From Candidatus Poribacteria bacterium (GTDB taxonomy: Bacteria; Poribacteria; WGA-4E; WGA-3G), in NCBI GenBank assembly GCA_963422705.1, contig OY730443.1, forward strand, positions 3,169,394 to 3,233,393: 64,000 nucleotides of DNA, in the 5' to 3' direction. Position 1 is the stretch's first letter. Each line of letters starts with the position of its first letter. The notes under the pieces are model-generated. The model had not been told where the DNA came from, did no database searches, and saw only the letters and a list, made by a program, of their open reading frames with translations. The position numbers were made by a program, and so were the translations under genes. Shown in pieces: positions 2,169 to 60,829 of this stretch.

Positions 2169-3797
2169 ATGAAGATGAAATTGTCCCAAATTGCGCTCTT
2201 CCTCCTCAGTATTACTTGTTGTTCTGCATTCGCTGACAGCGTTCCGTCCGTCGCTCCCGCGAACTCATTATCGCCGGCGGTTCAACAGGATGCCGCCAAT
2301 TGGGCGTGCTTGATGTGGGCAGTCTATTGCAGCGCGCATCCGAAAAAGATTCGGCAGAGCCGAACCGTTTACGATACGCTCATCGCTGAATTTGAGAAGC
2401 CTTCAGAAAAGATATCTTTTGGAGTACAGGCAAAAAGTTTCATTTGTACACAACGGGCAACCCTACGCCTCAATCATTTACAGGACATCCGCGGTGCGAA
2501 AGCGGATTGTGAATGGGCAGTTGAACTCAATCCGGAAAATGTCCGAGCAACCTGGCTCCTCTCCCGCGTCTTAGAGCAGCTCGCGATTGCCGCGATTCGC
2601 ACCGGGAAACAGACTGAAACCGGTACCGATTTGCAAACGGAGCTGATGACTACCTTAAAACGGGTGATTGAATTAGATGCAGACCATGCTGGCGCGCATG
2701 AAACACTTGCTCGATTTGCCAAGTACTTTGGCGAAACAGAACTCGCCATCACCTCGTTGAAAGCACTCACTCGCATTCTTCCGTTTGAAGCGCAATTTCA
2801 TCTGCAGCTTAGTGAATTATATGAAGACGCAGGGCGGTTACCTGAATCCATTAATAGTTACGAACGGGTTGTCACTATCCAGCCCCGAAATGCTAGTGCC
2901 AAGAACCATCTTGGGCAGCTTTACTTACAGGTCGAGGACTTTGAAAATGCTGTCACCGCCTTTCAAGCCGTTTTGGAATTCGTAGCATCACAAGAAGGGG
3001 GTTCACAGCGCGAGCGAACGCGGCGCAATGAACGCTTGCAACGTCCGAATCGGGTGACGCAAGAAGATACGTCACAGATTGAACTGGATGCACAGTTTGG
3101 TATCGGCATTGCGTATCAAGGTACTGGGGAATTTGTTAAAGCGGAGGGACACTTACTGCAAGCAATCGTACTCACGACTGAAAAGGTGAAAAAGACTCGG
3201 AATCGGGCGGCACGCAACGATTTACAGCACCGACTTCGAGAAGTTCAATACACGCTTGCTCAGGGGTACCTGCGGTTTGAAGAAAAAGCGGGCGCTCAGA
3301 AAGCCTTAACCATCTTTGCGGAGATATTAGCAGCCGCACCGGAACATGTGGGCGCAAACTACGGTAGTGGTATCGCAAATCAAGTGTTAGGAAACACCAC
3401 CGAGGCTGAGGTGTATCTCTCCAAAGCGATTGAGCTCTCTTCAACACCGCTCCCCGATGCCTATAACGCCTTAGGCTATCTCTATGCGCAGCAAGGCATT
3501 AAATTAGACGAAGCCGAATCCCTTGTGGAACAGGCACTTCGCTCTACCCCCACATCGGGGGCATACTTGGATAGTTTAGGATTCATTTATTTTAAACAGG
3601 GCCAGCTAGATGCAGCCATCGAAACGTTAGAAAAAGCCGACAGGCACTTACCCAATACGCCCGACATTCTTTTACACCTTGGCGACGCTTATCTGAGAAA
3701 AAGATGGACAGTGAAGGCACGTCAAGTTTTTCAACGCGCGCTGGAGCTCTCACCGGAGAATACCCAACTCAGACAGAAACTCGATTCCATCGAATAA
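2169..3797 (+). CDS. Secreted tetratricopeptide (TPR) repeat protein
   Basis: N-terminal signal peptide (MKMKLSQIALFLLSITCCSAFA) followed by multiple TPR-like helical repeats. RBS GGAGAAA lies upstream. Confidence 0.6.
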   Translation: MKMKLSQIALFLLSITCCSAFADSVPSVAPANSLSPAVQQDAANWACLMWAVYCSAHPKKIRQSRTVYDTLIAEFEKPSEKISFGVQAKSFICTQRATLRLNHLQDIRGAKADCEWAVELNPENVRATWLLSRVLEQLAIAAIRTGKQTETGTDLQTELMTTLKRVIELDADHAGAHETLARFAKYFGETELAITSLKALTRILPFEAQFHLQLSELYEDAGRLPESINSYERVVTIQPRNASAKNHLGQLYLQVEDFENAVTAFQAVLEFVASQEGGSQRERTRRNERLQRPNRVTQEDTSQIELDAQFGIGIAYQGTGEFVKAEGHLLQAIVLTTEKVKKTRNRAARNDLQHRLREVQYTLAQGYLRFEEKAGAQKALTIFAEILAAAPEHVGANYGSGIANQVLGNTTEAEVYLSKAIELSSTPLPDAYNALGYLYAQQGIKLDEAESLVEQALRSTPTSGAYLDSLGFIYFKQGQLDAAIETLEKADRHLPNTPDILLHLGDAYLRKRWTVKARQVFQRALELSPENTQLRQKLDSIE

Positions 3798-3921
3798 TTC
3801 TTGCCGATGATGCTAAAAATCAGTCGCTATTTCGATGGAAGAATTTCATTCATGATTCTCGCGTTGATTTACAGGCGTACTGTTATTCACAAGTTTTTTG
3901 AGGACGGAGCAACAGGATTAC

Positions 3922-3955
3922 GGAGCCCCGTGACAAGGTGAGGGGCTCCTTTTCC
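3922..3955 (+). terminator. Intrinsic terminator downstream of the TPR gene
   Basis: ggagcccc-gtgacaaggtga-ggggctcc hairpin (8-bp GC stem) followed by a TTTTCC run. Confidence 0.55.
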
Positions 3956-4032
3956 GTCACAACCGCGGTGAATTTTTATGGGCACGGCACCTTTTCAGGC
4001 CAAAACGACTTTCGCACACTTGCAAGGTACCT

Positions 4033-5772
4033 ATGCGAGAAAGCATGATACTCATCATCATCTTAGTAGTCTTGTTCACACCGCAACGTAGTAAGGCTTT
4101 CCGCTGCGGCACTTCCGAATTGATAGAAAATGCAGACGCCATCACCCCGTTGCAGGAACCTGCAGCAACTGCCCCGGCCCCGCTCCTCGCGATTGGCACC
4201 GAACGGACGTTCTTTGCCCCGGATTTTCGCAGCAGGCAATCCTACACTGTGAGGGCAGTTTTGCGAGGTGTCGGTAAATACTGTTATGTTTATGTCGAAG
4301 AGTCTGAATGGGATGCGCGCGTTACGCCTGACACCGTCACGAACATTGTTCGCGCTTTCGATGAGCGCACCCCGACACAATCCCGGGGCATCTATCCGAC
4401 GTTGACACATGTGTTCGGTGCGCCGCCGGATATTGATGCCAATGGGCGCATCATCTTACTCCTCTTAAACATCCGCGATGCGTTCGAAAACAGCGGTACC
4501 TACACCGCCGGCTTTTTCAACCCTGCCGATCAGCAGCGCGGTTTCCTTCGTCACCCCGGCGCGCGTGGACTTTCTATCCGCAGTAACGTCGCTGATATGC
4601 TCTATATTGATACGCGTCCGCTCCCCATTCACTCCCCGCATGCCCATAATGTCATCGCCCATGAGCTGCAACATCTTATCCATTGGCGACACGATGCGCG
4701 CGAAGCCGTTTGGGTGGATGAGGGTTGTTCGGACTACGCCGCTTTTCTCTGCGGTTATTTCTCAGAGGAACACGTCGCCGCTTTTGAAAAAACGCCCACG
4801 GTTTCTCTTACCCACTGGCCAGAAAACCATAACGTTTCACTGGCACATTACGGTGCCGCTTTTCTTTGGATGCTGTACCTCCATGAACACTACGGCGGCC
4901 CAGACACTGTCGCTGCCATCGTGAAGCATCCCTCCACCGATATCGACGGCATTACGGCTGTCCTCCTTGAACTCGGTTTTTTGGATGGAACACAACCCCG
5001 TTTGCCCTGGCATCGCACTGAGACAATCGAATTGGCAAAAAACGAAATTCTGTCAGTCACCGATATTTTCGTCGATTGGCAAGTTGCCAACCTCCTTTCC
5101 GGCTACAAGTTGATACGCCGGCTGACTCTGACTCCTACAGACATGCATCGAGACTATCCATTCTACGGGGAAAGTGTCATTCCGCCCTTCGCTGCTGAGT
5201 TCCTTCACTTCGCGCTTCCCAACCGAAATGAAACGCTCACGCTCCGTTTTTCAGGCGGCAATCCTGCTGTTGCCGACTGGGCAGTGCACCTTGTTGAATG
5301 GCATTCAAACACCCGCATTCACATTCGAGAGATGTCTTTAAAAACGAATAGAGACACCGGCAATTTAAACATTAGCCCTGCCGCCACGGCAGCACTTCTC
5401 ATCCCCAGTTTGCAACCCGAAGCCGCCCGTCTAGCTCCGATAAACAGCGTTCCGTATCAATATAGCGCGACACGGGGTGGAAATGTTACTTTCATCACCA
5501 GCGTCTTGCCAAACCCGGTGCATCCACAGTACTGGGAGATTATCGCGCAAACGAATGAACCTCTCATCGGGTTCACCCCGACGATTACGCTTGAGTACCT
5601 TGAGCGCCAGACTCTTGTTGAAGAGGCGCCCATGCGTCAACTACCGCGCAGCGGAAGCTATCGATATACCGTCCGGCTAGCGCCTGAGCAAGTCCCGGCT
5701 GATGTGACGTGGTATCTCTTTCTTGATGCACGGCGCGTTGAACAAGGGACTTTCAGCGATATTCCAAAGTAG
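4033..5772 (+). CDS. Secreted zincin-like metalloprotease-fold protein (HExxH), function unknown
   Basis: Signal peptide MRESMILIIILVVLFTPQRSKA. HELQH motif with downstream DEGCSDY. No closer family is recognisable by eye. Confidence 0.5.
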   Translation: MRESMILIIILVVLFTPQRSKAFRCGTSELIENADAITPLQEPAATAPAPLLAIGTERTFFAPDFRSRQSYTVRAVLRGVGKYCYVYVEESEWDARVTPDTVTNIVRAFDERTPTQSRGIYPTLTHVFGAPPDIDANGRIILLLLNIRDAFENSGTYTAGFFNPADQQRGFLRHPGARGLSIRSNVADMLYIDTRPLPIHSPHAHNVIAHELQHLIHWRHDAREAVWVDEGCSDYAAFLCGYFSEEHVAAFEKTPTVSLTHWPENHNVSLAHYGAAFLWMLYLHEHYGGPDTVAAIVKHPSTDIDGITAVLLELGFLDGTQPRLPWHRTETIELAKNEILSVTDIFVDWQVANLLSGYKLIRRLTLTPTDMHRDYPFYGESVIPPFAAEFLHFALPNRNETLTLRFSGGNPAVADWAVHLVEWHSNTRIHIREMSLKTNRDTGNLNISPAATAALLIPSLQPEAARLAPINSVPYQYSATRGGNVTFITSVLPNPVHPQYWEIIAQTNEPLIGFTPTITLEYLERQTLVEEAPMRQLPRSGSYRYTVRLAPEQVPADVTWYLFLDARRVEQGTFSDIPK

Positions 5773-26549: not shown

Positions 26550-26996
26550 GGAGAATTGTAGTAGATGCTGAAAATAAGGGGACATTAGCGTATCAATTTT
26601 GTCGACAGGACGAGCGTCGCCGCAAGGTAACGTATCTGCCTCATCACTTGTTAGGGGGTGATGTACCATGAAAACTTATTCGTATCAATGTAGAGATTCA
26701 TCCAATTGTATTCGGCTTGGCAACTTTCTTGACGATATGTGGCAAGTGGATATGTATTTCCATAAGCGGCAGCGTCAACAGGATAAAGACGGATTATCAT
26801 GCGATGCGCGCACACGTGATTAAGTTGAAGCGGTGCCCCCCGGCATTGGAATGTTTTGCCGAGTCAAGTCCTCTAAGAGGAAATCAAACGTATTTACGCG
26901 GGACATCCGCGTTTTTTCAATAAATCTGGCGGTAACCCCATATCAAACCGCAGTTGCTATGAAACCGAAGCTGACCTTTTAGGGTGTGGCTATCAC
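26550..26996 (+). mobile_element. MITE/PATE-like internal-deletion derivative of the IS200/IS605-like element at 43.7 kb
   Basis: Left part matches that element's left end (LE) and tnpB 5' end (cgtatcaa, then ATGAAAACTTAT...cttgacgatatgtggcaagtg). The junction is at a shared aaacc, followed by a right end (RE) matching accgcagttgctatgaaaccgaagc...ctatcac. Flanked on the left by TTGAC. Confidence 0.6.
26669..26821 (+). pseudogene. tnpB: tnpB 5' fragment (51 codons) inside the MITE-like element
   Basis: MKTYSYQ...LGNFLDDMWQVDMYFHKRQRQQ parallels the N-terminus of TnpB at 43857 (MKTYKYP...IGNQLDDMWQVHVYFHKWQRH). Confidence 0.6.
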
Positions 26997-28638: not shown

Positions 28639-31467
28639 ATGCGTTTTATTGCTGTTATCGTTTTCTTAATTGGGGTCGCGATTGCGATTGGGTACTTCGC
28701 ATATCAAAATCTGGGCGGCTTTGCGTCCACCAGCCTGGTTCGTTGGCTCATCGTTATTTTTGCGGTATTGTTGGGGAGCCTCATTGCGTTCGCAGCTTCA
28801 GTCATCCGATATCGGATTCCGAAAGCGGATGTTGCGCTTATTAGGACGGGGGGCTCCCGGGAAAAAATTCGTGTCACCGGCGGACTCTGGGTAAACACGA
28901 TTATTCATGAAATCAAAGAAGTTTCTCTCAATACCATGCGCATTGAGGTGGTTCGCGAGGGGCCAGAAGCGCTAATCACCTACGACTTCAACCGTGGAGA
29001 TGTTGAAGTCGTTTTTTACCTTAAGGTCGAGCCTGTAGAGGACGGTATCTTACGCGCAGCACAAGCACTCGGCGATAAATCTATGACGCCAGAAACCGTC
29101 CGTGAACTGATAGAACCTAAGCTTGAGGGGGCACTACGCAGTGTTGCCGCCGAAAGTGACATACAAGAGCTCTTGCAGAAACGACAAGAATTCGCTGATA
29201 AAGTACAAGCCACATGTGGCGAAGACCTGGAAGCACAAAATGGGTTGACACTTGAAACTGTCTCCATTATCCGCGTCGATCAGACACCCGTTGAAACATT
29301 GGATGCCGATAACCGTTTTGACGCCGTCGGTATCCGGGAAATTACTGAAATTACAGCCGAGCAGGAACGCGAAAAAACACGCATTGTTCAAGAGAAAGAT
29401 GTAGCAATCGCTCAAATTGAGATGGATGCACGCGTCCGGAAGCTTGAAATCGAACAGGAACAGTCCTGGGCAGAGTCAGATCAGCAGAAGAATATCTCTA
29501 TTTATGCAGCTGAACGGGAAGCCGAGACACTCAAATTTCAGTTTGAGATGGAGCAAGGCGTCCAAGAACGTGAATATGAGATGAAGCAAGAGGTTGAACG
29601 CGCACGCATCACACAGGAACAAGTCGTCCAAGAACGCGAAATTGAGATGAACCGGGATGTTGAAGTCGCCCGCGTCCAACAAGAACAGATTGTCGCTGAA
29701 CGCGAAATTGAGAAAAACCTTATTGTTGAAACGCAACAGATTGAACAATCCAAAGTTGTTCAACTTGCCGAAATTGAGCAGCATCTTATCGTGCAACTGC
29801 AGAAAATTGAGCAGGAACAGAGCATCGCTGTTCGTGATATAGAGAAGGAGTTATTCGTAGAGAAGGCGCGTATTGCGCAAGAAGAGGGTGTGATGCTGCG
29901 TGATATTGAGCGTGATTTACTTGTTCAGACGGAGCGTTTTAGTCAAGAGCAACAGGTTCAGCAGCGTGAGATAGAAAAGAATCTGGTTGTGGAGACAGCC
30001 CAAATCGAGCAGCTTCGGCAAGTAGAACTAGCCGAGATTGCGAAAATGCTAACGGTAGAGATAACGCGCATTGCGCAGCAACAGCAGGTGGAGACGCGCG
30101 ATATAGAGAAGGAGTTATTCGTAGAGAAGGCGCGTATTGCGCAAGAAGAGGGTGTGATGCTGCGTGATATTGAGCGTGATTTACTTGTTCAGACGGAGCG
30201 TTTTAGTCAAGAGCAACAGGTTCAGCAGCGTGAGATAGAAAAGAATCTTGTCGTGGAGACAGCCCAAATCGAGCAGCTTCGGCAAGTGGAACTGGCCGAG
30301 ATTGCGAAAATGCTAACGGTAGAGATAACGCGCATTGCGCAGCAACAGCAGGTGGAGACGCGCGATATAGAGAAGGAGTTATTCGTAGAGAAGGCGCGTA
30401 TTGCGCAAGAAGAGGGTGTGATGCTGCGTGATATTGAGCGTGATTTACTTGTTCAGACGGAGCGCTTTAGTCAAGAGCAACAGGTTCAGCAGCGTGAGAT
30501 AGAAAAGAATCTTGTCGTGGAGACAGCCCAAATCGAGCAGCTTCGGCAAGTGGAACTGGCCGAGATTGCGAAAATGCTAACGGTAGAGATAACGCGCATT
30601 GCGCAGCAACAGCAGGTGGAGACGCGCGATATAGAGAAGGAGTTATTCGTAGAGAAGGCGCGTATTGCGCAAGAAGAGGGTGTGATGCTGCGTGATATTG
30701 AGCGTGATTTACTTGTTCAGACAGAGCGTTTTAGTCAAGAGCAACAGGTTCAGCAGCGTGAGATAGAAAAGAATCTGGTTGTGGAGACAGCCCAAATCGA
30801 GCAGCTTCGGCAAGTGGAACTAGCCGAGATTGCGAAAATGCTAACAGTAGAGCAATCCCGGATTGGCCAGGAATTGCGCGTGGTGTTGACTGATGAGGAT
30901 AGAAAAATCGATGTTGCCAATAAACAGCAGTTGACAGCCCTGGCCGAAAAAGAGCAGCTGGTTGCAGAGGCTGAACGGATGGGTGCCGAAGTAGAGGTTA
31001 CCGCGACTGAACAGCGTGGAGAGGCAGAATGGCAGCGTGAAGTGGCAATCATCGGAGCGGAAGCGCAGGCACAACCAATTGAACGTCTCGCCGACGCGGT
31101 GCTTGCTGAAGCACGCGCCAAAGCACAGGGAGATATGGCAGATTACGAGGCACGAAACGTTGCTGAGCAGCGGGTTCTCGTACAGGAAGCCATCTTAGAA
31201 CTCATTGACGAACTCCCTGATATTTTTGAAGAAATGATGAAACCTGTTGAGAAAATCGACAGCATTAAGATTTTGGATATGGGGAACAATGATGGGCAAC
31301 GCGGTATCACACGTAGCAATATGGGACGTCTCGCAAATGCCTTGCTTGATACCGGCGCAATTTCACCGATGTTAAAGGAATTGTTCAACTTCGCCGATGT
31401 AGATGCGCAACAAATTACGGATAAGATTGCTGAATATCTCGCCGACTTGGTGAATCGCCCCAGTTAA
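28639..31467 (+). CDS. Flotillin/SPFH (band 7, YqiK-like) membrane protein with an expanded coiled-coil repeat region
   Basis: N-terminal TM helix plus SPFH-like segment (LIRTGGSREKIRVTGGLWVNTIIHEIKEVSLNTMRIEV). Long E/Q/R-rich heptad region containing an 88-aa unit repeated about 4 times. Confidence 0.65.
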   Translation: MRFIAVIVFLIGVAIAIGYFAYQNLGGFASTSLVRWLIVIFAVLLGSLIAFAASVIRYRIPKADVALIRTGGSREKIRVTGGLWVNTIIHEIKEVSLNTMRIEVVREGPEALITYDFNRGDVEVVFYLKVEPVEDGILRAAQALGDKSMTPETVRELIEPKLEGALRSVAAESDIQELLQKRQEFADKVQATCGEDLEAQNGLTLETVSIIRVDQTPVETLDADNRFDAVGIREITEITAEQEREKTRIVQEKDVAIAQIEMDARVRKLEIEQEQSWAESDQQKNISIYAAEREAETLKFQFEMEQGVQEREYEMKQEVERARITQEQVVQEREIEMNRDVEVARVQQEQIVAEREIEKNLIVETQQIEQSKVVQLAEIEQHLIVQLQKIEQEQSIAVRDIEKELFVEKARIAQEEGVMLRDIERDLLVQTERFSQEQQVQQREIEKNLVVETAQIEQLRQVELAEIAKMLTVEITRIAQQQQVETRDIEKELFVEKARIAQEEGVMLRDIERDLLVQTERFSQEQQVQQREIEKNLVVETAQIEQLRQVELAEIAKMLTVEITRIAQQQQVETRDIEKELFVEKARIAQEEGVMLRDIERDLLVQTERFSQEQQVQQREIEKNLVVETAQIEQLRQVELAEIAKMLTVEITRIAQQQQVETRDIEKELFVEKARIAQEEGVMLRDIERDLLVQTERFSQEQQVQQREIEKNLVVETAQIEQLRQVELAEIAKMLTVEQSRIGQELRVVLTDEDRKIDVANKQQLTALAEKEQLVAEAERMGAEVEVTATEQRGEAEWQREVAIIGAEAQAQPIERLADAVLAEARAKAQGDMADYEARNVAEQRVLVQEAILELIDELPDIFEEMMKPVEKIDSIKILDMGNNDGQRGITRSNMGRLANALLDTGAISPMLKELFNFADVDAQQITDKIAEYLADLVNRPS
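29836..30855 (+). repeat. 264-bp near-perfect tandem repeat x about 3.9 inside the flotillin-like gene
   Basis: Unit starts at 29836, 30100, 30364 and 30628 (gatatagagaaggagttattcgtagagaaggcgcg...), with only a few SNPs between copies. Confidence 0.9.
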
Positions 31468-43613: not shown

Positions 43614-44182
43614 TTCTATGAATGGTTCCTTTATTTTATCTGTTTTCAGGGTTTACGGGCATTCGTTTGTTTTGCCCAATCCTTTAGGTTTGGGATATAA
43701 GCCCGCTAAGGGCCTAATCCTTGTGAAATAAATTTGACTTTTCTGCTAAAAATGTGATATCATATTCGTATCAAGTTGGCAGACATGAACAGCGTTACCA
43801 CTTGGTAGCGTGTCTGCCTACCCACTAGGGGTTTAAGACTTGAAACTTGATAGTCCATGAAAACCTATAAATACCCGCTTGGGAAACAATCTAATACGAT
43901 GCGCATTGGAAATCAGCTTGACGATATGTGGCAGGTGCATGTGTATTTCCATAAGTGGCAGCGTCACCGGTATAAATATGGTTTGCCGTATGCCAACTAC
44001 GCTGCAATGTGTCAACATGCATGCATATTGAAACGAACCACACATCCACATTGGAAGTTGTTGCCAAGCCAAGCCATCCAAGCAGAGCTAGAACGAATTG
44101 ATAATGCGTATCAAAGGTTCTTTAATAAACTGGGAGGTAACCCCCATATCAAACCTCGCCATAAGTTTAAGTCTATCACGCT

Positions 44183-44288
44183 GAAACAAACTGGATTTAA
44201 ACTGACTGATAACCGTATTACACTCACTTTTCGTCGAAACAAACTGGATTTAAACTGACTGATAACCGTATTACACTCACTTTTCGTC
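44183..44288 (+). repeat. 53-bp perfect tandem duplication (gaaacaaactggatttaaactgactgataaccgtattacactcacttttcgtc x2) that frameshifts tnpB
   Basis: Copy 1 is 44183..44235 and copy 2 is 44236..44288. 53 is not a multiple of 3, and a TAA lies just after the junction. Confidence 0.9.
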
Positions 44289-44668
44289 AGTGGGATAAAG
44301 GGAAGTGGCGATTTGATAAAGTGCCAACTACGTTTCATAAGCACCGCCAGTGGCATGGGACTCTCCGTCGTATCACAATCAAATGTGATAATTGTGGCGA
44401 CTATTGGCTTTACATCATAACGGATGACACCGATTTTAAACCGCTGCCGACAACAGGTAAAAGCGTTGGGGCAGACTTCGGAATGAAAGACGCGTACTTG
44501 ACACTTAGCACGGGTGAGAAGATACAACACCCCGAACCTTTGAAACAGTCCTTGAACAAACTTCGGACTCTCAATAAAGCGTTTTCTCGTAAAGTTAAAG
44601 GTTCTGGCAACTGGTGGCGATGTGTCAGGCAACTTGCACGTCTGTATCGGAAAATTAGCAACCACCGC

Positions 44669-44691
44669 GAAACGGCGGTTTCGCCCTACGC
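44669..44691 (+). repeat. 23-nt hairpin mini-repeat gaaacggcggtttcgccctacgc, copy 1, in-frame inside tnpB-1 (encodes ..ETAVSPYA..)
   Basis: Identical 23-mer found four times in the window. Stem gaaac/gtttc with loop ggcgg. Absent from the aligned position of the second TnpB. Confidence 0.85.
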
Positions 44692-44949
44692 TAAAGATTT
44701 TCACTGGCAACTGGCAAGTGAACTTTGTAAAAAGTTTTCTTGCTTTGTCCTTGAGACGTTGAACCTTGACGGCATGAAACGACTGTGGGGGCGTAAAGTC
44801 TCGGACCTCGCCTTCTACCAGTTCGTTGAGATATTGGAATATAAGTGCAGTAAACATAAACGTATGAGGAAACAAATCGGACAATGGACGCCGACAACGA
44901 AGCCGTGTTCAGATTGTGGGTATCACAACAAAGAACTAAGACTTTCAGA

Positions 44950-45171
44950 TAGGCAGTGGACATGCCCCGACTGTGGTCCACACCACGACAGAGACATCAA
45001 CGCTGCGATAAACATTTTGCGGGCAGGGATAGCCGTCACTTGACGATATGCCTGTAGAAAACTACAGGGAAATGCCCGTAGGTGGAGCGACAGTAAGACG
45101 GTGGACACTTTGAGAAAACCGCAGTTGCTATGAAACCGAAGCCCCACGCTTTAGCGTGTGGGTGCTATCAC
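44950..45171 (+). ncRNA. Candidate TnpB-associated reRNA/omegaRNA scaffold (3' end of tnpB plus RE)
   Basis: By analogy with IS200/IS605 TnpB systems, the guide RNA derives from the tnpB 3' end through the RE boundary (…ctatcac at 45171). The 5' boundary is a guess. Confidence 0.3.
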
Positions 45172-45600
45172 GAAAGTATAATATAGAATGTCCGATGTGT
45201 CCAGAATGATTTTGTCCGAATGAGTTATCGTAGGTTTTAAAAGGAGTGATACCGTTCCCAATGAGAACCTTGCAGGCGCGCTTGCCAAGTGCGCAGTTTG
45301 AGACAGCTCCGGTGAAGATAAATGTCGCGGTATTTTTCTACTACACTGTAATTCTCGACTAGAAAGTCAATAACCCCCGACTTCAGTCGGGGGCTTGTGC
45401 GAAGCGTATACCAAACGTTCACTCCACAAGTTAAACGATTTTCTACAGTAAAATATCGCTTTATCTGGGCGTGGTGGCCTAAACAATGTTTCGGATACTC
45501 CCCTCGTCCGATTCACGCTACGATATTGCGCTCTGGAAGGGGCAATATACAACCCGTAAGGGAGATTACAAACGATGTTTGTTCCGGTGACGAGTCAAAC
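45172..45600 (+). ncRNA. Candidate omegaRNA for the downstream IsrB-like gene (about 400-nt ORF-poor structured region)
   Basis: Lies immediately 5' of, and overlapping, the IsrB-like start, as in IscB/IsrB loci. Contains a strong hairpin cccccgac-ttca-gtcggggg (45374..45393). No convincing protein ORF. Confidence 0.35.
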
Positions 45601-46375
45601 AGGTGCCTTGTTGATGCCGACGCGTGCGAACAAGGCGGGCATGCTGATTAAGAAAGGTTTCGCCACGCCCTATTGGTCAAATGGGATATTCTGTATCCGG
45701 CTTAACTATGCTACCGAAGCCGCATACACACAAGATATCGTCGTCGGTGTAGAACCCGGTAGCAAGAAAGAAGGCTTTACCGTCACATCAGCATCTCATA
45801 CCTATTTGAATGTTCAGGCAGACGCTCACGTCGGTGTCGGTAAGAAAGTGGCGAAGCGTCGAGAGTTGCGTAGAAGTCGGCGTTCACGAAAGTGTCCGAA
45901 TCGCAAGAATAGAACCAACCGTCTTGCGAATAGAGCGCGTATCCCCGCAGGCACACGTGCGAGATGGGACTGGAAACTTCGGATATTGGATTGGTTGTCC
46001 AAACTGTATCCGGTTAGCCACGTTTGTGTTGAGGATATTAAGGCACGGACAATAGAACGTGCGAAGAAGTGGAACACCTCCTTTAGTCCGCTTCAAGTTG
46101 GTAAACAGTGGTTCTATCGCGAAATCCGTAAACGGTGGGAACTGTTCACTTTACAAGGGTGGGAGACGAAAGAAATACGAGAGAGGTTAGGTCTCAAGAA
46201 GTCTTCAAAGAAACTATCGGAACCCTTTGATGCGCATTGCGTAGATTCTTGGTGTCTGGCACATCATACCGTAGGCGGTTTGGATATACCCGATAACACG
46301 TCGCTTCCGAAACGGCGGTTTCGCCCTACGCTTGTGTATCTCACCGATACCGATAAAACGCAGAGAGTTGCATAG
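45575..46375 (+). CDS. Compact IsrB-like (HNH-less IscB) OMEGA nuclease, 266 aa
   Basis: N-terminal PLMP-like domain (GALLMPTRANKAGMLIKKGFATPYW). RuvC-I IVVGVEPGSKKEGFTV. Arg-rich bridge helix KRRELRRSRRSRKCPNRKNRTNR. RuvC-II VSHVCVEDIKA. RuvC-III FDAHCVDSWCLAHH. No CxxC/HNH insert between RuvC-II and RuvC-III. Confidence 0.6.
   Translation: MFVPVTSQTGALLMPTRANKAGMLIKKGFATPYWSNGIFCIRLNYATEAAYTQDIVVGVEPGSKKEGFTVTSASHTYLNVQADAHVGVGKKVAKRRELRRSRRSRKCPNRKNRTNRLANRARIPAGTRARWDWKLRILDWLSKLYPVSHVCVEDIKARTIERAKKWNTSFSPLQVGKQWFYREIRKRWELFTLQGWETKEIRERLGLKKSSKKLSEPFDAHCVDSWCLAHHTVGGLDIPDNTSLPKRRFRPTLVYLTDTDKTQRVA
46309..46331 (+). repeat. Same 23-nt hairpin mini-repeat, copy 2, in-frame near the 3' end of the IsrB-like gene (encodes ..KRRFRPTL..)
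   Basis: Exact 23-mer match. Confidence 0.85.
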
Positions 46376-46485
46376 GCAACAGGAAGCGAAAGGCGGTAAA
46401 CGCACACGGGTGGGTGGCACTGTATTAGGGAAAGGCTTAGTCAAAAATACATTGCTTAATCATGTCAAATACGGTTTAACCCGCC

Positions 46486-46508
46486 GAAACGGCGGTTTCG
46501 CCCTACGC
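46486..46508 (+). repeat. Same 23-nt hairpin mini-repeat, copy 3, intergenic downstream of the IsrB-like gene
   Basis: Exact 23-mer match. Confidence 0.85.
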
Positions 46509-46936
46509 TCTTGCTGGCGTTAACGCAAATGGTTTGTTTTCGATATACAGTATGGGAAACAAACGATTAACCACAGGGGCGAAGCGTTCTGATTTTCGCG
46601 TGCTAACACGCCTCAACTTTTACTATAGGAGCGGTGTTTCCTCCCCTGAATGAATTCAGGGGGTTCCACACCGAAGAAAATGATGAATCGAAATCATAAT
46701 ACCTCCCGGTAGGAGGAGTCTTCTCTTTGATTTCCGCGTCGTCCAGATTCCTGCCGTCTCGAGAGCGTCACGACATGTCGAAAACGAAATGGGCTAAACT
46801 ACGCTGTATTAACACTTGACATTTTTGAAATTTTGTAGTATCTTTATTAGGAGTTTTCAACAAACCTGCAAAAAGATGTGCTCGTTCAATCGCATGGGGA
46901 GTGCTCTAATTAGAACATAAGGAGAGGAACGAAACT

Positions 46937-52564: not shown

Positions 52565-52672
52565 ATACGATACACGATAATAGAAAGGTAAGATATTATA
52601 CCTCTCAAAATCGCGAATAAGAAACGTAATGACAAAACAAGCAACAAGACACTCTCTAGTTGTCAATATCAC

Positions 52673-53041
52673 GTGATTTGGTGTACCAAGTATCGTCGTA
52701 AGGTTTTGGATACACAGATACAAGGACGCCTGAAACACCTCATACGAGAAAAACAGGACGCGTCTGAATATCAAATCTGTGAGGGTGAAACTCACCCTGA
52801 ACCTGTCCATTTGCTAATAGAAATACCGCCAATACATGCTATTGATAAAATCGTTGGCAAAATCAAAGGTTATACCGCGGCAAGCATGTTGCTTGCTACC
52901 TTTAAAGTTTTGCGAGAAGAATATCCGTGCCTGAAAAGTCGTTTGCCGTCTTTATGGACACGTTCAAAGTTTGTCAGTTCCTGTGGTGGCGTAACGCTCC
53001 AAGTCATCAAGGACTATATTGAAGCTCAAAGTGGACAATGA
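52673..53041 (+). CDS. tnpA: IS200/IS605 HUH (Y1) transposase TnpA
   Basis: HVIWCTKYRRKVL…HLLIEIPP… motif pattern of IS200 TnpA. Homology continues upstream to about 52625 (NDKTSNKTLSSCQYHV) with no in-frame ATG, and the ATG at 52629 is in the +1 frame. Confidence 0.8.
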   Translation: MIWCTKYRRKVLDTQIQGRLKHLIREKQDASEYQICEGETHPEPVHLLIEIPPIHAIDKIVGKIKGYTAASMLLATFKVLREEYPCLKSRLPSLWTRSKFVSSCGGVTLQVIKDYIEAQSGQ

Positions 53042-54268
53042 GAAAAGCCAGCAAGTTCAAACTTCAAAATCAATCGAACATCGTCAAAATCGGCAATATG
53101 CTTGACGATATGTGGCAGATACACCAGCAATTCATGCTTTTACAGCGTAGGTTTTAAGGTGATGATAAGTTGCATGAGAAATCTCCGACGAGATTATTAA
53201 GGGATTGTCAAAAACAGCAGAAGCTCAACCGACTAAGCACGACGAAAAATCGCATGTTCGGCTTTCAACCTGCCCGCATCTCGCATCAACAAACATATTG
53301 TGAAACTCAAGAAGCGCACAAAACCACATTGGGCAGACTTGCCGAGTCAAGTTGTGCAAGACGTTGTTCTGCGATATGGCAAATCACAAGACGCATTTTT
53401 CCAAAACATAGAAGAACGCAAAGCCGGTAAGACAAGACGTAAAGTCGGTAAACCGAAAATCAAACCGAGACACAAATACACCTCTATGACTTTCACACAA
53501 AGCGTAGGGCGAAACCGCCGTTTCGCGGGCTACACACTTGAAAAAAATCGTATCAAAATCAACGGTATAGATACGTGGTTCTCCTTCCACAAACACCGTG
53601 AAATCAACGGGACAATCAAGACGATAACACTCAAACGGGACAGGTGCGGTGATTATTGGATATGCTTTTCGTGCGCGAATGTTGACGATTCCGAACCGAA
53701 ACTCAAGACGGGTAAGAGCGCAGGGTTTGATTACGGAAACAAAACATTCCTTACAAGCGACGAAGGCAACAAGATAGAATCTCCGCAGTTTTTCAAACAC
53801 TCCCTGAAAACGTTGCGATGCCTGAGCAAAGCCCTGAGTCGTAAAGTCAAAGGTTCTAACAACTATTATCGTGCGTGTCGTGCTTTGGCGAGGCACCACA
53901 GAAAAGTCGCGCGCCAAAGAGAAGAGTGGCAGTGGAAACTTGCCACCGAACTTTGCACGGCGTTTGATATACTCTGTTTTGAAACACTGAATCTTGACGG
54001 TATGAAACGCCTTTGGGGACGCAAAGTCTCTGAACACGCAGAGGATCAGTTCATACAGATATTGGAACAGAAGTGTGCAAAGCATGGTAAAAAACTTGAG
54101 CGAATCAGTCAGTGGACACCTACAACAAAACCATGCAGTGATTGCGGATACCATAATCAAGAACTCTCTCTTTCTGATAGACAGTGGACTTGTCCCGACT
54201 GTGGTTCTCATCACGATAGAGACGTCAACGCTGCTATCAATATCAAACGGGCAGGCTTGGCTGCCTAA
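53038..54268 (+). pseudogene. tnpB: TnpB gene interrupted near codon 40 by a foreign about 130-nt segment (N-terminal fragment 53038..53160, remainder 53300..54268)
   Basis: N-terminal fragment MRKASKFKLQNQSNIVKIGNMLDDMWQIHQQ… then a stop. The remainder resumes at the equivalent of about residue 65 (KLKKRTKPHW…) and runs to CSDCGYHNQELSLSDRQWTCPDCGSHHDRDVNAAINI. Confidence 0.75.
53502..53524 (-). repeat. Same 23-nt hairpin mini-repeat, copy 4 (reverse orientation), in-frame inside tnpB-2 (encodes ..GRNRRFAG..)
   Basis: Exact reverse-complement 23-mer match. Absent from the aligned position of TnpB-1. Confidence 0.85.
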
Positions 54269-54488
54269 AGTGGAGCGACAATGAGACGGGGTTTCTCTCA
54301 GAGAAAAGCGCCGTCGCTACGAAGCACAAGCCCCTACCTTCAGGGAGTGGGTACCTATGCTGCTATCAATATCAAACGGGCAGGCTTGGCTGCCTAAAGT
54401 GGAGCGACAATGAGACGGGGTTTCTCTCAGAGAAAAGCGCCGTCGCTACGAAGCACAAGCCCCTACCTTCAGGGAGTGGGTACCTATG
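54231..54488 (+). repeat. 129-bp perfect tandem duplication spanning the last 12 codons of tnpB-2 plus the RE
   Basis: Copy 1 is 54231..54359 and copy 2 is 54360..54488. Each begins ctgctatcaatatcaaacgggcaggcttggctgcctaaagtggagcgacaatgagacgg… and ends …gggtacctatg. Confidence 0.9.
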
Positions 54489-55760: not shown

Positions 55761-58700
55761 TCACGCTTCCGTCAACTCAGACGGTAACCCCTCAATAATT
55801 TCAGTCGACGCAACGCTCACATAAACCAGGCGTTTTATCACGGTAATAAGTTCATCCGGTTCTGCAAACCACTCATTTGCGTCATTGATGATGCCACTCT
55901 CCTTGTCCCGCGTCACCTTGTACCTATCAATTAACCACTCCAGGGGCGTCCGTCCGTTAACCACATACCGATGCGCCTCCGAAGGGATACCCGATACGCG
56001 CGTCTCCTCATTGATGATAAGCGTCTCTTTGCTCACCTTATCCGAAAAACGCATCGACTTCGAACTCAACTGAAAATTCCCCGTCGGGGCATCCACGGAA
56101 AGGGGGTACGCCTCACACGTCTCATAATTCAGGTGTAGGCGCGCTAGCGCCGCACCCGCATCCGAAAACGCGCTGAAATCAGGCGCAAACGGAATGCGCG
56201 GCAACATCTTGGTGACATCATTCGCGAACTTTTCACGATACACCGACGAATGCAATACGCCGTAAACATAATCGAAAATCGCATCCTTCGTGATGCCGTC
56301 ATCCCGGTAATGCGCACGGAACGCCGCCAGCGCCGTATCCGATATGTTGTCAAGACGCCGGCCACTGATTGGGTATTCCCACCGCGGAAAGCATTGGCAC
56401 CCATTGTTTAAACCGCATTCCGGCATCGTATCCGTGATAAGCGCGGAAAACGGCTTTTTGGAACCGATACCCGGCACACATATCACCCGGTTTTCACTCG
56501 ACAAGGGAGGAAACATCCTGTCCATCCAGTGTTTACTCTGTGCGAGCGTATAATCCGCGTAATAATTCGTGGGCACAAACGGGCGATAGCTCACCTTTCG
56601 AAGGTATTCTGCTTTAAAGTCAACCCTTTTCTTTTGTTCGAGTCTCTTTTTCAGCGCTGCTCCCCACTTAATATTCTGTCTTGCGTTGTGCCGGTGTACC
56701 ACCTCATCCACAGTGAGTTCAGGATTTGCCTCAAGTTCAGCAATTGCTGCGCGGTACTCTTTCGTCATGCGGCGGGCGTTGTCGAGGCATGCGTGTCGTG
56801 AGAAGTTGTGGAGGTAGGCGTCCCTACCCGTTGCATACCCGCGTGAATATAACTTAAATATCGCATCGTCCGCCTTGCCCACCTTTGTCTCCTTGGTGCC
56901 CATCGGGTAAAACCGTGCAAACGCATCGCTCCGCTGGTTAACCCAATCGTGATGAGCATTCGGCGTAATTGTCTGCCAATCGCGAACCCCTTTGATGGAG
57001 CCAGCATCCCGCAACGCCGTTAGCTTCTCCTCGCGCGTGAGGTAATCCCCGATATCGCGGTATCGGATTTCACACCTTTTCGTCGTTTTCAGTGCGCTAA
57101 ACTTCTGCTGTTTTTGGCAATCCGTTGATAATCTCGTCGGAGATGCTTTCGTCGTGCTTAGTCGGTTAAGCTTCTGCTGTTTTTGGCAATCCGTTGATAA
57201 TCTCGTCGGAGATGCTTTCGTCGTGCTTAGTCGGTTAAGCTTCTGCTGTTTTTGGCAATCCGTTGATAATCTCGTCGGAGATGCTTTCGTCGTGCTTAGT
57301 CGGTTAAGCTTCTGCTGTTTTTGGCAATCCGTTGATAATCTCGTCGGAGATTTCTCATGTTTTTGTCGTGCTAAGCGATGGGGGTTTTTTACCAAGATGG
57401 TGATGGCAACCGGGGCGCGGGAACCGCTGCCGAAAGCATTTCCACCTTCCGCACGTCGCCGTTCTCCAGAGGTCTCGCATCCCCTCGAAGGTGTAGCACG
57501 TAGATAGAACTGAATTCGGAGGCGAGACATGCCCGGAGCCCCGCATCGGCGTTCCCATCAACCCACGAACCGTTGGTAACGAAGGCGATAACCCCCTCTT
57601 CGCCAATTCTGTCGCTTGCCCACCGGAGTGCCAGTTTGTAGGTATCGTAGAGACTATTCTTATTGGTTACTGTCGATGCCGCGGCATAGGTGTCCCGGAT
57701 GCGTTTTTCAAGCGCCGGATAGTGCACGTTAGGGTTGTCATTGGCAGCACTCTTCTGCCCCACGGACCACGGTGGGTTACCGACGATGACACGGATACGC
57801 CGTTCCTGTTGATTCTCGGTGCGTTCGTTGTTATCCATCAGCCAGAGCAGGGGTTCTGTCTCTCTGTCCGGAATTGGTGTTGTGTTGAGCGTGAAAGTAT
57901 CGGTGAGGGCGATGCCGTTGAACGGTTGTTTCTCAAGTCCCGTCTGCGCACCCATGGACGCAGCCCCTTCAGGGCGCCGGCTGCGGAAGGCTTCGGCGAT
58001 ATTGATGGCGGCGATGTAATAAGCGAGGAGTACGATTTCGTTGGCGTGTAGTTCCTCCCGATATTTCCGTTCCACGTCCGCGGGCGCGATGAGTTCAGAT
58101 TGCAGCAGGCGCGCCAGAAAGGTGCCAACGCCGGCGAACGGTTCTAGGACATGAACACCTTCATCGGAGAGGCTTCGTCCGAATTCATCGGTGAGCACGT
58201 CGTCGGCGCTTTTCAAAATGAAGTCGACGATGTCCACCGGCGTGTAGACGATACCGAGTCGTTCCGCCTCTTGTTTCAGCGCCGTGGCGAAAAATTTCTC
58301 GTAGAGTTCCAACAGCACGCGCTGTTTCCCCGCGCTGTTATCGATGCCGCGGGCGCGCATGCGGACGCTGTCGTAAAAGCCTTCCAAGTCCCGCGTCTCA
58401 TCTAAGAGTCCGAATTCGGCGAAATCGGCCCGGAGCGTGTCCAGCGCTATCGCCACCGGGTTGCTAGAGGCGAATACGTCATTCTCAAAGAGTGCGTCGA
58501 AAACGGGATTTGTGATGATATGCTGTGCCATCATATCGATGGCGTCGCCGCGAGTGATAGCGTCGTTTATCGCGCTTTTGAGTTCGGCATGGAATGCGTC
58601 AAACCATTCTTGCAGCGCCGTGTTTGCTGGATGTCGCAGTAATCCCTCAATGCGTGCGACGACGCGCAAGAAAATATCGGCGACGTCCTTCGCCCAGCTC

Positions 58701-60829
58701 TCCCAATATTTCCTATCGCCGCACTGTTCCACGATTTGCGCGAAGATAGCGTCCGCGGGGATATCCAGCGGCAACGTCAGCTGTGAGGAAAACGCCGCAT
58801 CGCCGTTAAACTCGCCCTTAAATTCGCCCTCAAAGATGATGCGCTGGGTGGGCGTCGTGTTGATATCGATGCTGTTGATTTCCGCGTTGAGTCTATCGTC
58901 GTGTGAACGGAGCGCGCGGAGCACATTCCACACAGATTTGAAGCGTTCGGTGTCATTGAGGATTTTGCCCGGTTCGGCGCCCTCCGGTATCGCGACAGGC
59001 AGGATAATGTACCCATAAGTCTTCCCCGGCGATTTGCGCATCACGCGTCCTACCGCCTGCACGATATCGACGTATGAGTTCCGCGGCGTCATGAAAAGCA
59101 CCGCGTCGAGGGCAGGGACGTCGATACCTTCGGAGAGACACCGGGCGTTGGAGAGGATGCGGCAGACGTCATCGCCACCACCTTTCAACCATTCAATCCG
59201 TTTTTTTCGTAAGAGCGCATTATCTTTCCCGTCAACGTGTTCGGTTTGGCACTCAAACCGCGCTATGCTTTGCGTGTCGGACAGCTGCTGTCGTGCGGTG
59301 TCGATAACACCGTTCCAATGTTTGACAAGGCTTTTCGACGCGGCGATGGTATTGGAGAAAGCGATGGCACGCGTCAACGGCTGCCTATCGGTATCCGCTT
59401 TTCTTTCAGGGTTTTGGAGCGCCCGCCAGCACCCCACAATTTTTGTCGCGTCGTTAATGTTAATCTCCCCGCCACCCGCGGCGATGTATTTCTGCAGTAC
59501 GGGGCCCACCCCTTGCTCCGACATCGCGAGCACAACTACCTTGTAGTCAGAGAGTAAGTCCTGCTCAACCGCGCGCGAGAAGGGCAGCCGGTGAAATTCT
59601 GCCCCGTAGGTAGCCGCATCGTCCATCGAATAAACGTCTCTCTCATGTCGCGCGGCCTTCGCTTTGGCCCCGGCGGTATAGAGGCGGGATGTCGCCGTCA
59701 TGTAGAGGCGTCTCTTCGCGTGAATGCGCGCCGCATCGTGGATGAGCACGAACGGCGAGGTGGTATCGTCCGGGGCTTCGACACCCGTGGTGCGGTGCGC
59801 TTCATCACAAAGCACGATATCAAACGGCGGCGCCCCCTCTTTTTGCGCGGTTTCCACAATCGGCAGCGACTGATACGTGCAGAAAACCACCCGCATATTA
59901 TCGGCATCCGGTTTCTGTAGTGCCGCGGAGATGTCGCCCACAGCTGTCGTCACAGGGAGTTCGAGTTCGAGGAGGGATGCATCTTCAGCGGTTTTGCCCG
60001 CCTTTGTATCAGAGCAGATACCGATGTATCGGTGCGGTATCGCCTGCTGCTCCGCCCATTCGCGCATCGCTTGCGAAAAGAGCCCAATAGACGGCACAAG
60101 ATAGAGCACGCGCCCGCCGACACCGGCGAGATGTTCGGCGATGCGGAGTGCCGTGAAGGTTTTCCCCGTGCCGCACGCCATCAGCAGTTTACCACGCGCA
60201 GCGGTTTTGAACCCGTGAACCACATCGTCAAACGCCTCCCGCTGATGCGTCCGGAGGCGGAACGTCTCGTGTCGATACGCGAGCTGTTCAGGCGCTTGCC
60301 GACTGAGTTCCGGCCAGGTTACCGGGCGGCTGGCGAGTTCCGCGGCGCTGATGCGTTGGCATGCCGGGCGCAGCCCATCCAGTGTTTTACGCACATTCGC
60401 GCTCCAGGTATCGCTCGTATCCACGAAGATACGCGCGGTAAAAGGCTCCCGCGCCGACGCGGCGATAAAGGTGTCGACAACAGCCTTCGTGATACGCGTA
60501 TTTTCCGCATAACATTTGCATTGGATGGCGCAGTAGCCACCGGCGCGCTCTTCGGCGACAATATCGATACCGGTATCAACCGCGTCAAACTCCGGACGGC
60601 GTTCCGCCCATTCCCCCCACAGATAGACAGCGGCGAAGCGTTTTTTGTAGAAAGCGTCTTCGCGAAGATAGCTTTGTATCAACCGCTCAAACAGTCTCCC
60701 CTTTTCGTATTCGCTATCCGCATGCTCACGAATGTAAGTGAGCGCCCTGTCGAACCCGTTATCCGTTTCCGCCGTTTCGGTTCCCAATTCGAGATAAGCT
60801 TGTGTCACTTCTGACATATCGGTTTCCAA
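55761..60829 (-). CDS. Type ISP restriction-modification enzyme (LlaGI/LlaBIII-like), apparently frameshifted at about 57472 and carrying a 4 x 23-aa repeat insertion
   Basis: Mrr-like PD-(D/E)xK FDAVDTGIDIVAEE…IQCKCY. SF2 ATPase CGTGKT and DEAH. gamma-class N6-adenine MTase IVGNPPW. A 1-nt correction restores the conserved LRGDARTSGERRRAEGGNAFGSGSRAPVAITILVKNP…IRYRDIGDYLTREEKL and the C-terminal TRD. Confidence 0.8.
57081..57365 (-). repeat. 69-bp perfect tandem repeat x about 4 (in-frame, encodes ASPTRLSTDCQKQQKLNRLSTTK x4) inside the Type ISP gene
   Basis: Unit starts at 57102, 57171, 57240 and 57309 (cttctgctgtttttggcaatccgttgataatctcgtcggagatgctttcgtcgtgcttagtcggttaag). A about 78-nt module about 92% identical is present once at 53170..53250 inside tnpB-2. 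Confidence 0.9.

Follow-up and report, generated by a model that had tools for sequence, protein, structure and literature searches.

Hairpin inserts of 24-25 nucleotides in the OMEGA transposon genes of a sponge-symbiont Poribacteria genome: candidate miniature mobile elements

Introduction

The repeats described here are short hairpin inserts in the OMEGA nuclease genes of a 64-kb stretch of a sponge-symbiont Poribacteria genome (hereafter, the window), and the closest described systems are repetitive extragenic palindromes (REPs) and the insertion sequences (IS) of the IS200/IS605 type. GTAG REPs are units of 20-40 nt with stems of 5-13 bp, short loops and a terminal GTAG; their families comprise tens to thousands of copies, and occasional copies are found inside genes and in frame (PMC3733652). 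Group-3 REPs are short perfect palindromes, such as units of 23 nt, and the transposase TnpA-REP cuts at CT or CA dinucleotides, with the GTAG acting as a guide; the spread of REP-type hairpins is regarded there as still little understood (PMC8266576). The signature of Y1 (IS200/IS605) and related HUH transposition, in turn, is insertion 3' of a fixed tetranucleotide, with no duplication (PMC8266576).

Two inserts of the window are considered, namely E1, the first 24-25-nt hairpin insert, which interrupts two tnpB genes and, twice, an IsrB gene, and E2, a second hairpin insert of different sequence in the neighboring tnpA. REPs are commonly supposed to move as inverted doublets, and to our knowledge the transposition of a single hairpin (REP singlet) is still unproven for REPs. 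The analysis presented below concludes that E1, rather than being a designed in-frame module, is most likely a tiny mobile element of the REP-like kind, for which a single-strand HUH transposase would provide the movement. For the joint reading of E1 and its sister E2 as miniature, non-autonomous mobile elements of the REP or IS200/IS605-end type, we estimate a probability of about 55%. An earlier note on this DNA, made from its letters, had already raised the idea of a tiny mobile element, and this stays the best reading, because an identical short insert occurs at four unrelated sites and is absent from the homologs of the interrupted genes, including some paralogs of the same genome. From their anatomy, E1 and E2 are provisionally filed as mini-elements of the Y1-substrate type, resembling REPs or IS200/IS605 ends, a filing that does not establish membership in either family.

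Results

Four exact copies of one hairpin

The 23-mer GAAACGGCGGTTTCGCCCTACGC, reported earlier in four exact copies, was indeed matched exactly four times in the window, at 44669 (+), 46309 (+), 46486 (+) and 53502 (-). No dinucleotide shuffle of the window contained a match (0 expected vs 4 observed), and degenerate copies, allowing up to 3 mismatches or up to 5 edits, were absent from the window. The common core is 25 nt for all four copies, 28 nt for the two tnpB copies and 26 nt for the two middle copies. The E1 unit itself is the 24-mer GAAACGGCGGTTTCGCCCTACGCT in tnpB-1 and tnpB-2, and 25 nt, with an extra 5' C, in both IsrB copies. When folded as single-stranded DNA, E1 forms a perfect hairpin, with the stem GCGAAAC/GTTTCGC and the loop GGCG in the tnpB copies; here the flanking GC lengthens the stem to 7 bp, as against 6 bp in the IsrB copies. 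The folding energies of the element hairpins, calculated for DNA, were -5 to -7 kcal/mol, which upholds the hairpin that the earlier note had recognized in the 23-mer. The reverse complement of E1 reads AGC-GTAG-G-GCGAAAC-CGCC-GTTTC(GC).

Successive copies in the window are 1640, 177 and about 7000 nt apart, one is inverted and every one is intragenic, and on these grounds a CRISPR repeat was rejected. The exact 23-mer had 0 matches in GTDB representative genomes, JGI metagenomes and IMG/VR, while the only exact DNA match to the window was a Logan contig of 2.2 kb. Scans of the window for Rfam families and tRNAs returned nothing relevant. An 18-kb locus (L002) from an independent European Nucleotide Archive (ENA) assembly, of the same strain or a close one, brings the DNA under study to 82 kb, in which five E1 copies were counted, all of them inside OMEGA genes.

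The copies are insertions

Insertions were called against a set of about 360 homologous proteins from other genomes, together with the DNA of uninserted relatives. The first copy (44669..44692, + strand) lies in tnpB-1 (43857..45043, + strand), the IS of which spans about 43657-45171 with TTTAC as its left flank. It is the 24-mer GAAACGGCGGTTTCGCCCTACGCT between the 5' flank CACCGC and the 3' flank AAAG, and it is read in frame as ETAVSPYA. These 8 residues are missing between N(Q/H)R and KDFHWQL in more than 100 TnpB-1 homologs, as well as in a distant TnpB protein of solved structure; alignment of tnpB-1 with the DNA of an uninserted relative left a gap of 24 nt at the E1 site, and two TnpB-1 paralogs of the same genome (P0125 and P0127) are without E1. 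The addition of nine residues, TAVSPYAKD, proposed earlier for this gene must accordingly be corrected to the eight of the homolog alignment. Both TnpB genes of the window carry the Pfam domains OrfB_IS605 and Cas12f1-like_TNB, and they belong to two different TnpB families.

In tnpB-2 (53038..54268, + strand), the E1 copy (53501..53524, - strand) is a reversed 24-mer, preceded in element orientation by CCCGC, and it encodes SVGRNRRF in frame. This octapeptide is missing in all 120 TnpB-2 homologs, including the 92%-identical paralogs P0251 and P0252 of the same genome. IS copies from other assemblies (L006-L008), which are 93% identical to the tnpA-tnpB-2 IS of the window, align to tnpB-2 with a gap of 24 nt, the string that they lack being the reverse complement of GAAACGGCGGTTTCGCCCTACGCT. 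The reverse orientation and the gain of about 8 residues had thus been recognized correctly in the earlier note; the peptide, given there as VGRNRRFA, is SVGRNRRF.

The remaining two copies reside in the IsrB gene (45575..46653, + strand), which was identified by its RRXRR domain and by its best match among solved structures, IsrB 8DMB (E 7e-30), and is preceded by a conserved omega-RNA region at about 45356-45574. Both are 25-nt units (C plus the 24-mer) on the + strand and form direct repeats 177 nt apart: the upstream one (IsrB-a, 46308..46332; 5' flank GCTTC) causes a +1 frameshift, and the other (IsrB-b, 46485..46509; 5' flank CCCGC) causes a second +1 frameshift in the 3' half, such that the gene is read in three successive frames that switch at each copy. 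Removal of both inserts restored an IsrB of 342 amino acids, colinear with about 100 homologs of that length and at most 89% identical to them, and alignment with the DNA of relatives showed two gaps of 25 nt. In-frame insertion in multiples of three, formerly claimed for all three nuclease genes, therefore holds for the 24-nt copies of tnpB-1 and tnpB-2 and fails for the two 25-nt copies of IsrB, which shift the frame by +1 each. Nor is any copy intergenic: the one at 46486, which the earlier note had taken for intergenic, sits in the 3' coding part of IsrB.

Overall, none of the six translations of E1 is encoded by any of the homologs from other genomes. The E1 copies are true insertions, because they are absent from all these homologs and from some paralogs of the same genome; in other words, the apparent insertions are not conserved in distant relatives, the solved TnpB included. 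As judged by the alignments, every E1 copy is a lineage-specific and recent insertion, and a single short sequence has thus entered four sites that are unrelated to each other.

The identity of the copies could be viewed differently, as that of a selected recognition site of OMEGA genes, i.e., a guide-RNA target, a protein-binding site or a regulatory hairpin that does not move. In its favor, the E1 copies are 100% identical, although the genes that hold them differ by 9-50%; specifically, L002 carries the identical 24-mer though the surrounding tnpB-1-type gene differs by 9%, and the octapeptide is unchanged across the 7 sequenced E1-bearing TnpB-1 copies, that of the window included. Such a site should not, however, be missing from hundreds of homologs and from paralogs in the same genome, occupy a different position in each gene, or destroy the frame of IsrB twice over. 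The guide-RNA variant, which the earlier note had floated, also finds no backing in the local guide positions, because in the window, as in L002 and L006, the DNA directly after the TnpB omega-RNA ends bears no relation to E1. We consider a selected site very improbable.

An artefact of assembly or sequencing deserves consideration for a different reason, since several perfect tandem duplications in the same region may be assembly errors. Nonetheless, the identical insert is present in the independent ENA assembly (L002) and in several separately annotated paralogs of the source genome, its boundaries are clean, and E1 matches no sequencing adapter known to us. This leaves an artefact with a next to negligible probability.

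A sister element in tnpA

Alignment of the tnpA-tnpB-2 IS (52469-54359/54488; left flank AAGCT in the window and ACGCT in L006) with the copies in L006-L008 revealed a second insert, E2. It lies at 52879..52902 (+ strand) in the IS200-type Y1 HUH gene tnpA (52598..53041, + strand), directly 3' of ACCGC, as a 24-nt sequence, GGCAAGCATGTTGCTTGCTACCTT, that is read in frame as ASMLLATF. E2 is single-copy in the window and unrelated to E1 in sequence. It is absent from L006, L007, L008 and the paralog P0376, and present in 5 of the 6 TnpA paralogs of the same genome. It folds into a 7-bp hairpin followed by CTAC, and its reverse complement is AAG-GTAG-CAAGCA-ACA-TGCTTGC-C. The two elements are therefore built alike, with a 5' hairpin followed by a tail of 6-8 nt that contains CTAC; on the other strand, this becomes 3 nt, GTAG and the hairpin.

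The E2 core returned nothing from JGI metagenomes, and the sole match of the core scan was one orthologous non-coding spot in Stutzerimonas/Pseudomonas, which is near chance expectation and has no Rfam match. At this spot (L009 2118-2140 and L010 5144-5166, from Pseudomonas lopnurensis and Stutzerimonas stutzeri, respectively), the E2 hairpin core recurs with three flanking bases, 23 nt in all. The IS end hairpins were also considered as the source of the E1/E2 tails (GCCCTACGCT vs GCCCCACGCT at 45141), but the likeness was dismissed as chance, since the whole window abounds in 10-mer matches with one mismatch.

Junctions and the CCGC target

The alignments with uninserted orthologs, a comparison proposed in the earlier note, defined exact boundaries and revealed no target-site duplication. 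In element orientation, the 5' flanks are CACCGC (tnpB-1), CCCGC (tnpB-2), ACCGC (tnpA/E2), CCCGC (IsrB-b) and GCTTC (IsrB-a). CCGC thus stands directly 5' of the insert at four of the five sites, for which the chance probability, calculated with the CCGC frequency of the window (0.0049), is 2.8e-9, and this tetranucleotide is native in the uninserted alleles. The 3' flanks are AAAG, TTGT, TAAAG, CTTG and TGTG, and neither a target duplication nor direct repeats were found at any of the five junctions. The right boundary, ...CGCT^ (with ^ marking the junction), is identical at all 4 E1 sites.

These junctions bear on two further explanations. The first invokes footprints or solo ends: E1 and E2 would be the terminal 24-25-nt scars of a larger, CCGC-targeting element of the IS200/IS605 kind, which had excised at an internal pseudo-cleavage site. 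The layout is suggestive, as a hairpin plus a 6-8-nt tail to the junction is that of IS200/IS605 right ends, such as ...GGGAGTGGG-TACCTATG^ and ...GCGTGTGGG-TGCTATCAC^ of the window; moreover, E1 ends in ACGCT, while the tnpA-tnpB-2 IS directly follows AAGCT in the window and ACGCT in L006, and the insert varies by one base (24 or 25 nt). On the other hand, neither the window nor L001-L012 contained a longer element that begins or ends with E1 or E2, scars of exactly 24 nt would be required of two sequences that are unrelated, and the two scars that lie 177 nt apart in IsrB would require two separate visits. In addition, excision in the IS200/IS605 family, as in IS608 and ISDra2, is normally seamless. 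We regard footprints as unlikely.

The second explanation dispenses with a dedicated transposase altogether: the 24-25-mers would be copies of an ectopic template, introduced at breaks or stalled forks of the IS genes by template switching or by end joining with capture of a small fragment. The neighborhood offers some precedent, since the same IS copies show perfect tandem duplications of 53 nt and 129 nt and a 93-nt insert related to an array 4 kb away, and in another lineage a TnpB gene is interrupted by 42 nt that form a hairpin and repeat parts of the flank; the one-base variation in length would fit as well. However, CCGC at four of the five sites speaks for site selection rather than random breakage, all four E1 sites share the same right boundary, usable microhomology is absent at the E2 junctions, and two different sequences share the same length, architecture and GTAG tag. 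Repair-templated copying is accordingly rated as quite improbable. Overall, these alternatives are disfavored because of the CCGC rule, the identical right boundary, the existence of a sister element and the independent assemblies.

A possible mechanism, and the points against it

If E1 and E2 are miniature mobile elements, their movement may be envisaged as follows. The folded single strand would be bound by a Y1 HUH enzyme whose gene lies elsewhere in the genome and which may be RAYT-like (REP-associated tyrosine transposase) or an IS200-type TnpA. The element would be cut out and pasted as single-stranded DNA, with the left cut after CCGC and the right cut after ...CGCT in E1 or ...CCTT in E2, and the 24-mer would be joined 3' of another CCGC on exposed single-stranded DNA, without target duplication. 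The 25-nt variant would result when the left cut falls one base too far upstream in the ...C flank. An element that has landed inside an IS is then multiplied passively at each transposition of that IS. As the 24-nt unit keeps the frame, it can persist in genes that tolerate 8 extra residues, such as tnpB-1, tnpB-2 and tnpA, whereas the 25-nt variant destroys the gene that it enters, as in IsrB. In four of the five copies, the CTAC strand is on the + strand, which has a positive GC skew and carries the IS top strands; this strand bias agrees, if weakly, with insertion into the lagging-strand template.

Several observations weigh against such mobility, and they concern the enzyme, the junctions and the distribution of the copies. 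No candidate mobilizing enzyme was found in the window, the only Y1 gene of which is the classical IS200-type tnpA; the end hairpins and the target, A[A/C]GCT, of that resident IS differ from those of E1, and its HUH motif is without the first His. At the junctions, IsrB-a has CTTC in place of CCGC, and the left junction is 0-2 nt from the foot of the hairpin, far closer than in left ends of the IS608 type. The GTAG-strand junctions, known from sequence only, are N^AGC and GTTTC^GCGG or GTTTCG^G, and lack a CT/CA dinucleotide; with CCGC as the target, it is the CTAC strand that would be active, opposite to that of RAYT substrates. Lastly, no extragenic E1 copy was found in the 82 kb and all copies are singletons, unlike typical REP families, and the distances among the TnpB-1 paralogs fit a star tree, which agrees with loss from the uninserted copies as well as with repeated gain in the inserted ones. 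The link to a HUH transposase, which the earlier note had suggested, is therefore plausible from the anatomy, i.e., the hairpin, the GTAG/CTAC tag, CCGC and the lack of duplication, although the window offers no enzyme to fill the role.

Spread of the elements and apparent preference for nuclease genes

Besides the copy of the window, at least 6 TnpB-1-family copies of the same genome or strain carry E1, and 2 are without it. Since E1 is found in these copies, and E2 in 5 of the 6 TnpA copies, most E1/E2 copies come from IS amplification, i.e., passive hitch-hiking. The only known locus-specific insertions are the tnpB-2 copy and the two IsrB copies. In the 11-kb island that harbors them, roughly 5.7 kb is not host coding sequence, and about 4.9 kb of this is IS DNA, so that the chance of three local events all falling in IS DNA is about 0.6 within the island, and about 0.06 when measured against the presumably neutral DNA of the window. 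Three local insertions in IS DNA are thus unremarkable, because nearly all the neutral DNA of the island is IS DNA. No dedicated targeting of nuclease genes has to be invoked, as the pattern is sufficiently explained by tolerance of the inserts, local hopping and hitch-hiking. The specific colonization of nuclease genes proposed in the earlier note is thus not called for, considering that the sister E2 resides in tnpA, that the copies are amplified by the IS, and that the neutral DNA of the island is mostly IS.

A bolder version sees in E1 and E2 hairpin transposons of a minimal 24 nt, living as hyperparasites of the IS200/IS605-family (OMEGA) transposons, which they would enter preferentially, at CCGC, during the single-stranded phase of TnpA-driven transposition and then ride. 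We deem this distinctly doubtful; if it were true, the elements would rank as the smallest mobile DNA for which empty and filled sites are defined, and as a direct example of single-hairpin (REP singlet) transposition.

Contigs of related Poribacteria suggest a wider occurrence of such hairpins. Perfect hairpins tagged with GTAG/CTAC are enriched in these contigs (3 in L006 vs 0.08 expected; 2 in L012 vs 0.03), and the element class is therefore present in the phylum. One of them, situated in a MetH-like gene, is a 23-nt unit whose 8-bp stem closes a 3-nt loop, another two are no more than about 150 nt away from the left end of an IS, and L012 has an intergenic inverted doublet, GTAG-CGCAAAC...GTTTGCG / CACAATC...GATTGTG-CTAC, in which the stem CGCAAAC/GTTTGCG resembles that of E1. 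They look like bona fide REP/REPIN-type repeats of Poribacteria. Tagged perfect hairpins of several sequences were located at L006 929-951, 5314-5332, 5420-5440 and 12635-12659, and at L012 2641-2696.

In a wider look at Poribacteria OMEGA genes, short internal inserts proved rare among the about 360 homologs. The one other case examined, a 42-nt in-frame insert, NVIQGMNLIYSQIK, was seen at about 3590-3640 of L011/L012, in a gene of the TnpB-1 family (3001-4155) of another lineage. It forms an 11-bp hairpin with the use of flanking bases, contains partial copies of the flank, has no GTAG tag, and looks flank-templated.

State of the host genes and other features of the region

The OMEGA host genes are, by their sequences, largely decaying copies, because tnpB-1 is broken by a 53-nt duplication, and tnpB-2 by a 93-nt insert and a 1-nt frameshift. 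The perfect 53-nt tandem duplication that frameshifts tnpB-1 occupies 44183-44288; the position homologous to that at which E1 entered tnpB-2 lies 7 nt downstream of its start. Of a third tnpB-1-type element, only a short relic is found (26728-26971), in which N-terminal fragments are joined to an omega-RNA fragment.

In tnpB-2, the 93-nt insert (53156-53248) has a stop codon inside, affects the N-terminus, and recurs in P0251, a paralog of the same genome. With about 92% identity, it resembles a 69-nt unit that is repeated 3.7 times (57098-57351) in a Type ISP restriction-modification gene 4 kb away, and represents a second, unexplained family of mini-inserts. The restriction-modification gene (55761-60829, minus strand) is itself split into two overlapping open reading frames by an apparent 1-nt deletion at about 57470-57480. 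A perfect 129-nt tandem duplication (54230-54488) covers the 3' end of tnpB-2 and the omega-RNA/right end; as a result, the would-be guide position after the first right end is the 3' coding sequence of tnpB-2 itself, a self-match.

The tnpA of the window is an NCBIfam IS200 equivalog, with the end hairpins CCCCAYGC-TTTA-GC..GGG. It starts with ATA where its relatives have ATG, and the first His of the HUH motif is replaced by Pro (PEPVHLL) in all six paralogs of the source genome, while L006 has HVH. The resident transposase may, from these changes, be impaired, despite the several copies of its IS. Finally, away from the island, a 264-nt unit occurs in 3.9 repeats of 98% identity inside a flotillin/SPFH-like gene (29836-30852).

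Discussion

Five filled sites matched to empty alleles define a single-hairpin unit of 24 nt with exact boundaries, a CCGC target and no duplication, and the locus thereby supplies concrete oligonucleotide substrates for a Y1 HUH enzyme. It also documents inserts of 8 residues, carried at defined positions in the otherwise intact reading frames of TnpB and TnpA, and it shows that OMEGA transposons can amplify tiny passengers. Should the bias to these transposons be proved mechanistic, the elements would be a parasite of a parasite.

The known systems can now be compared with E1 and E2 in turn, beginning with those that fit least. A MITE (a miniature transposable element with inverted repeats) was rejected, since the inserts measure 24-25 nt (MITEs usually exceed 50 bp), are not flanked by duplications, and have an asymmetric tail outside the palindrome. 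Intron and adapter readings were likewise rejected, on the variable effect on the frame, the lack of duplication and the presence in independent assemblies. The Rickettsia palindromic elements (RPEs) are inserts of 100-150 bp with a CGTC tag, and the genes in which they occur are Rickettsia housekeeping genes. Like them, the copies in tnpB and tnpA are short palindromic inserts that add a peptide in frame, but E1 and E2 are only 24 nt long, bear a GTAG tag, reside in selfish genes, and break the frame in their 25-nt variant.

The likeness to the IS200/IS605 family (IS608, ISDra2) and to palindrome-associated transposable elements (PATEs) is closer, and consists of insertion right 3' of a fixed tetranucleotide without duplication, and of a hairpin with a short tail to the right cleavage point. 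E1 and E2 also reside in an island of three IS200/IS605-type elements, and four of the five orientations match the IS top strands. The differences are, however, substantial: E1 and E2 consist of one hairpin in 24 nt, whereas the IS have distinct left and right ends, at least 100 nt in total; their hairpins are unlike the left-end and right-end hairpins of the three IS types of the window, and the left junction abuts the foot of the hairpin. The targets differ as well, being TTTAC for the tnpB-1 type and A[A/C]GCT for the tnpA-tnpB-2 type, as opposed to CCGC for E1 and E2.

With the GTAG REPs, the two elements share a unit size of 23-25 nt, a perfect stem of 6-7 bp, a loop of 3-4 nt, a GTAG 0-1 nt from the foot of the hairpin, and the occurrence of in-frame copies within genes (PMC3733652). 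With Group-3 REPs, such as the 23-nt units of Stenotrophomonas maltophilia, they share the unit size, the short perfect palindrome, and the occurrence of several sequence families in one phylum. The presumed enzyme, a Y1 HUH transposase acting on folded single strands, would also be that of RAYT systems (PMC8266576). E1 and E2 depart from REPs in that they are singletons in transposon genes, with none in intergenic DNA in the 82 kb, and do not form inverted dimers or clusters of the BIME (bacterial interspersed mosaic element) or REPIN (REP doublet) kind; they also seem to be present in few copies, most of which stem from IS amplification. No RAYT or REPtron was found in the window, and RAYTs act on the GTAG strand and on CT/CA dinucleotides, whereas the E1 and E2 junctions lack CT/CA, and CCGC would imply the CTAC strand. 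REPINs, finally, belong to the same class of hairpin, as the inverted doublet of L012 illustrates, but E1 and E2 appear to have moved as single hairpins, into empty sites that can be defined to the base.

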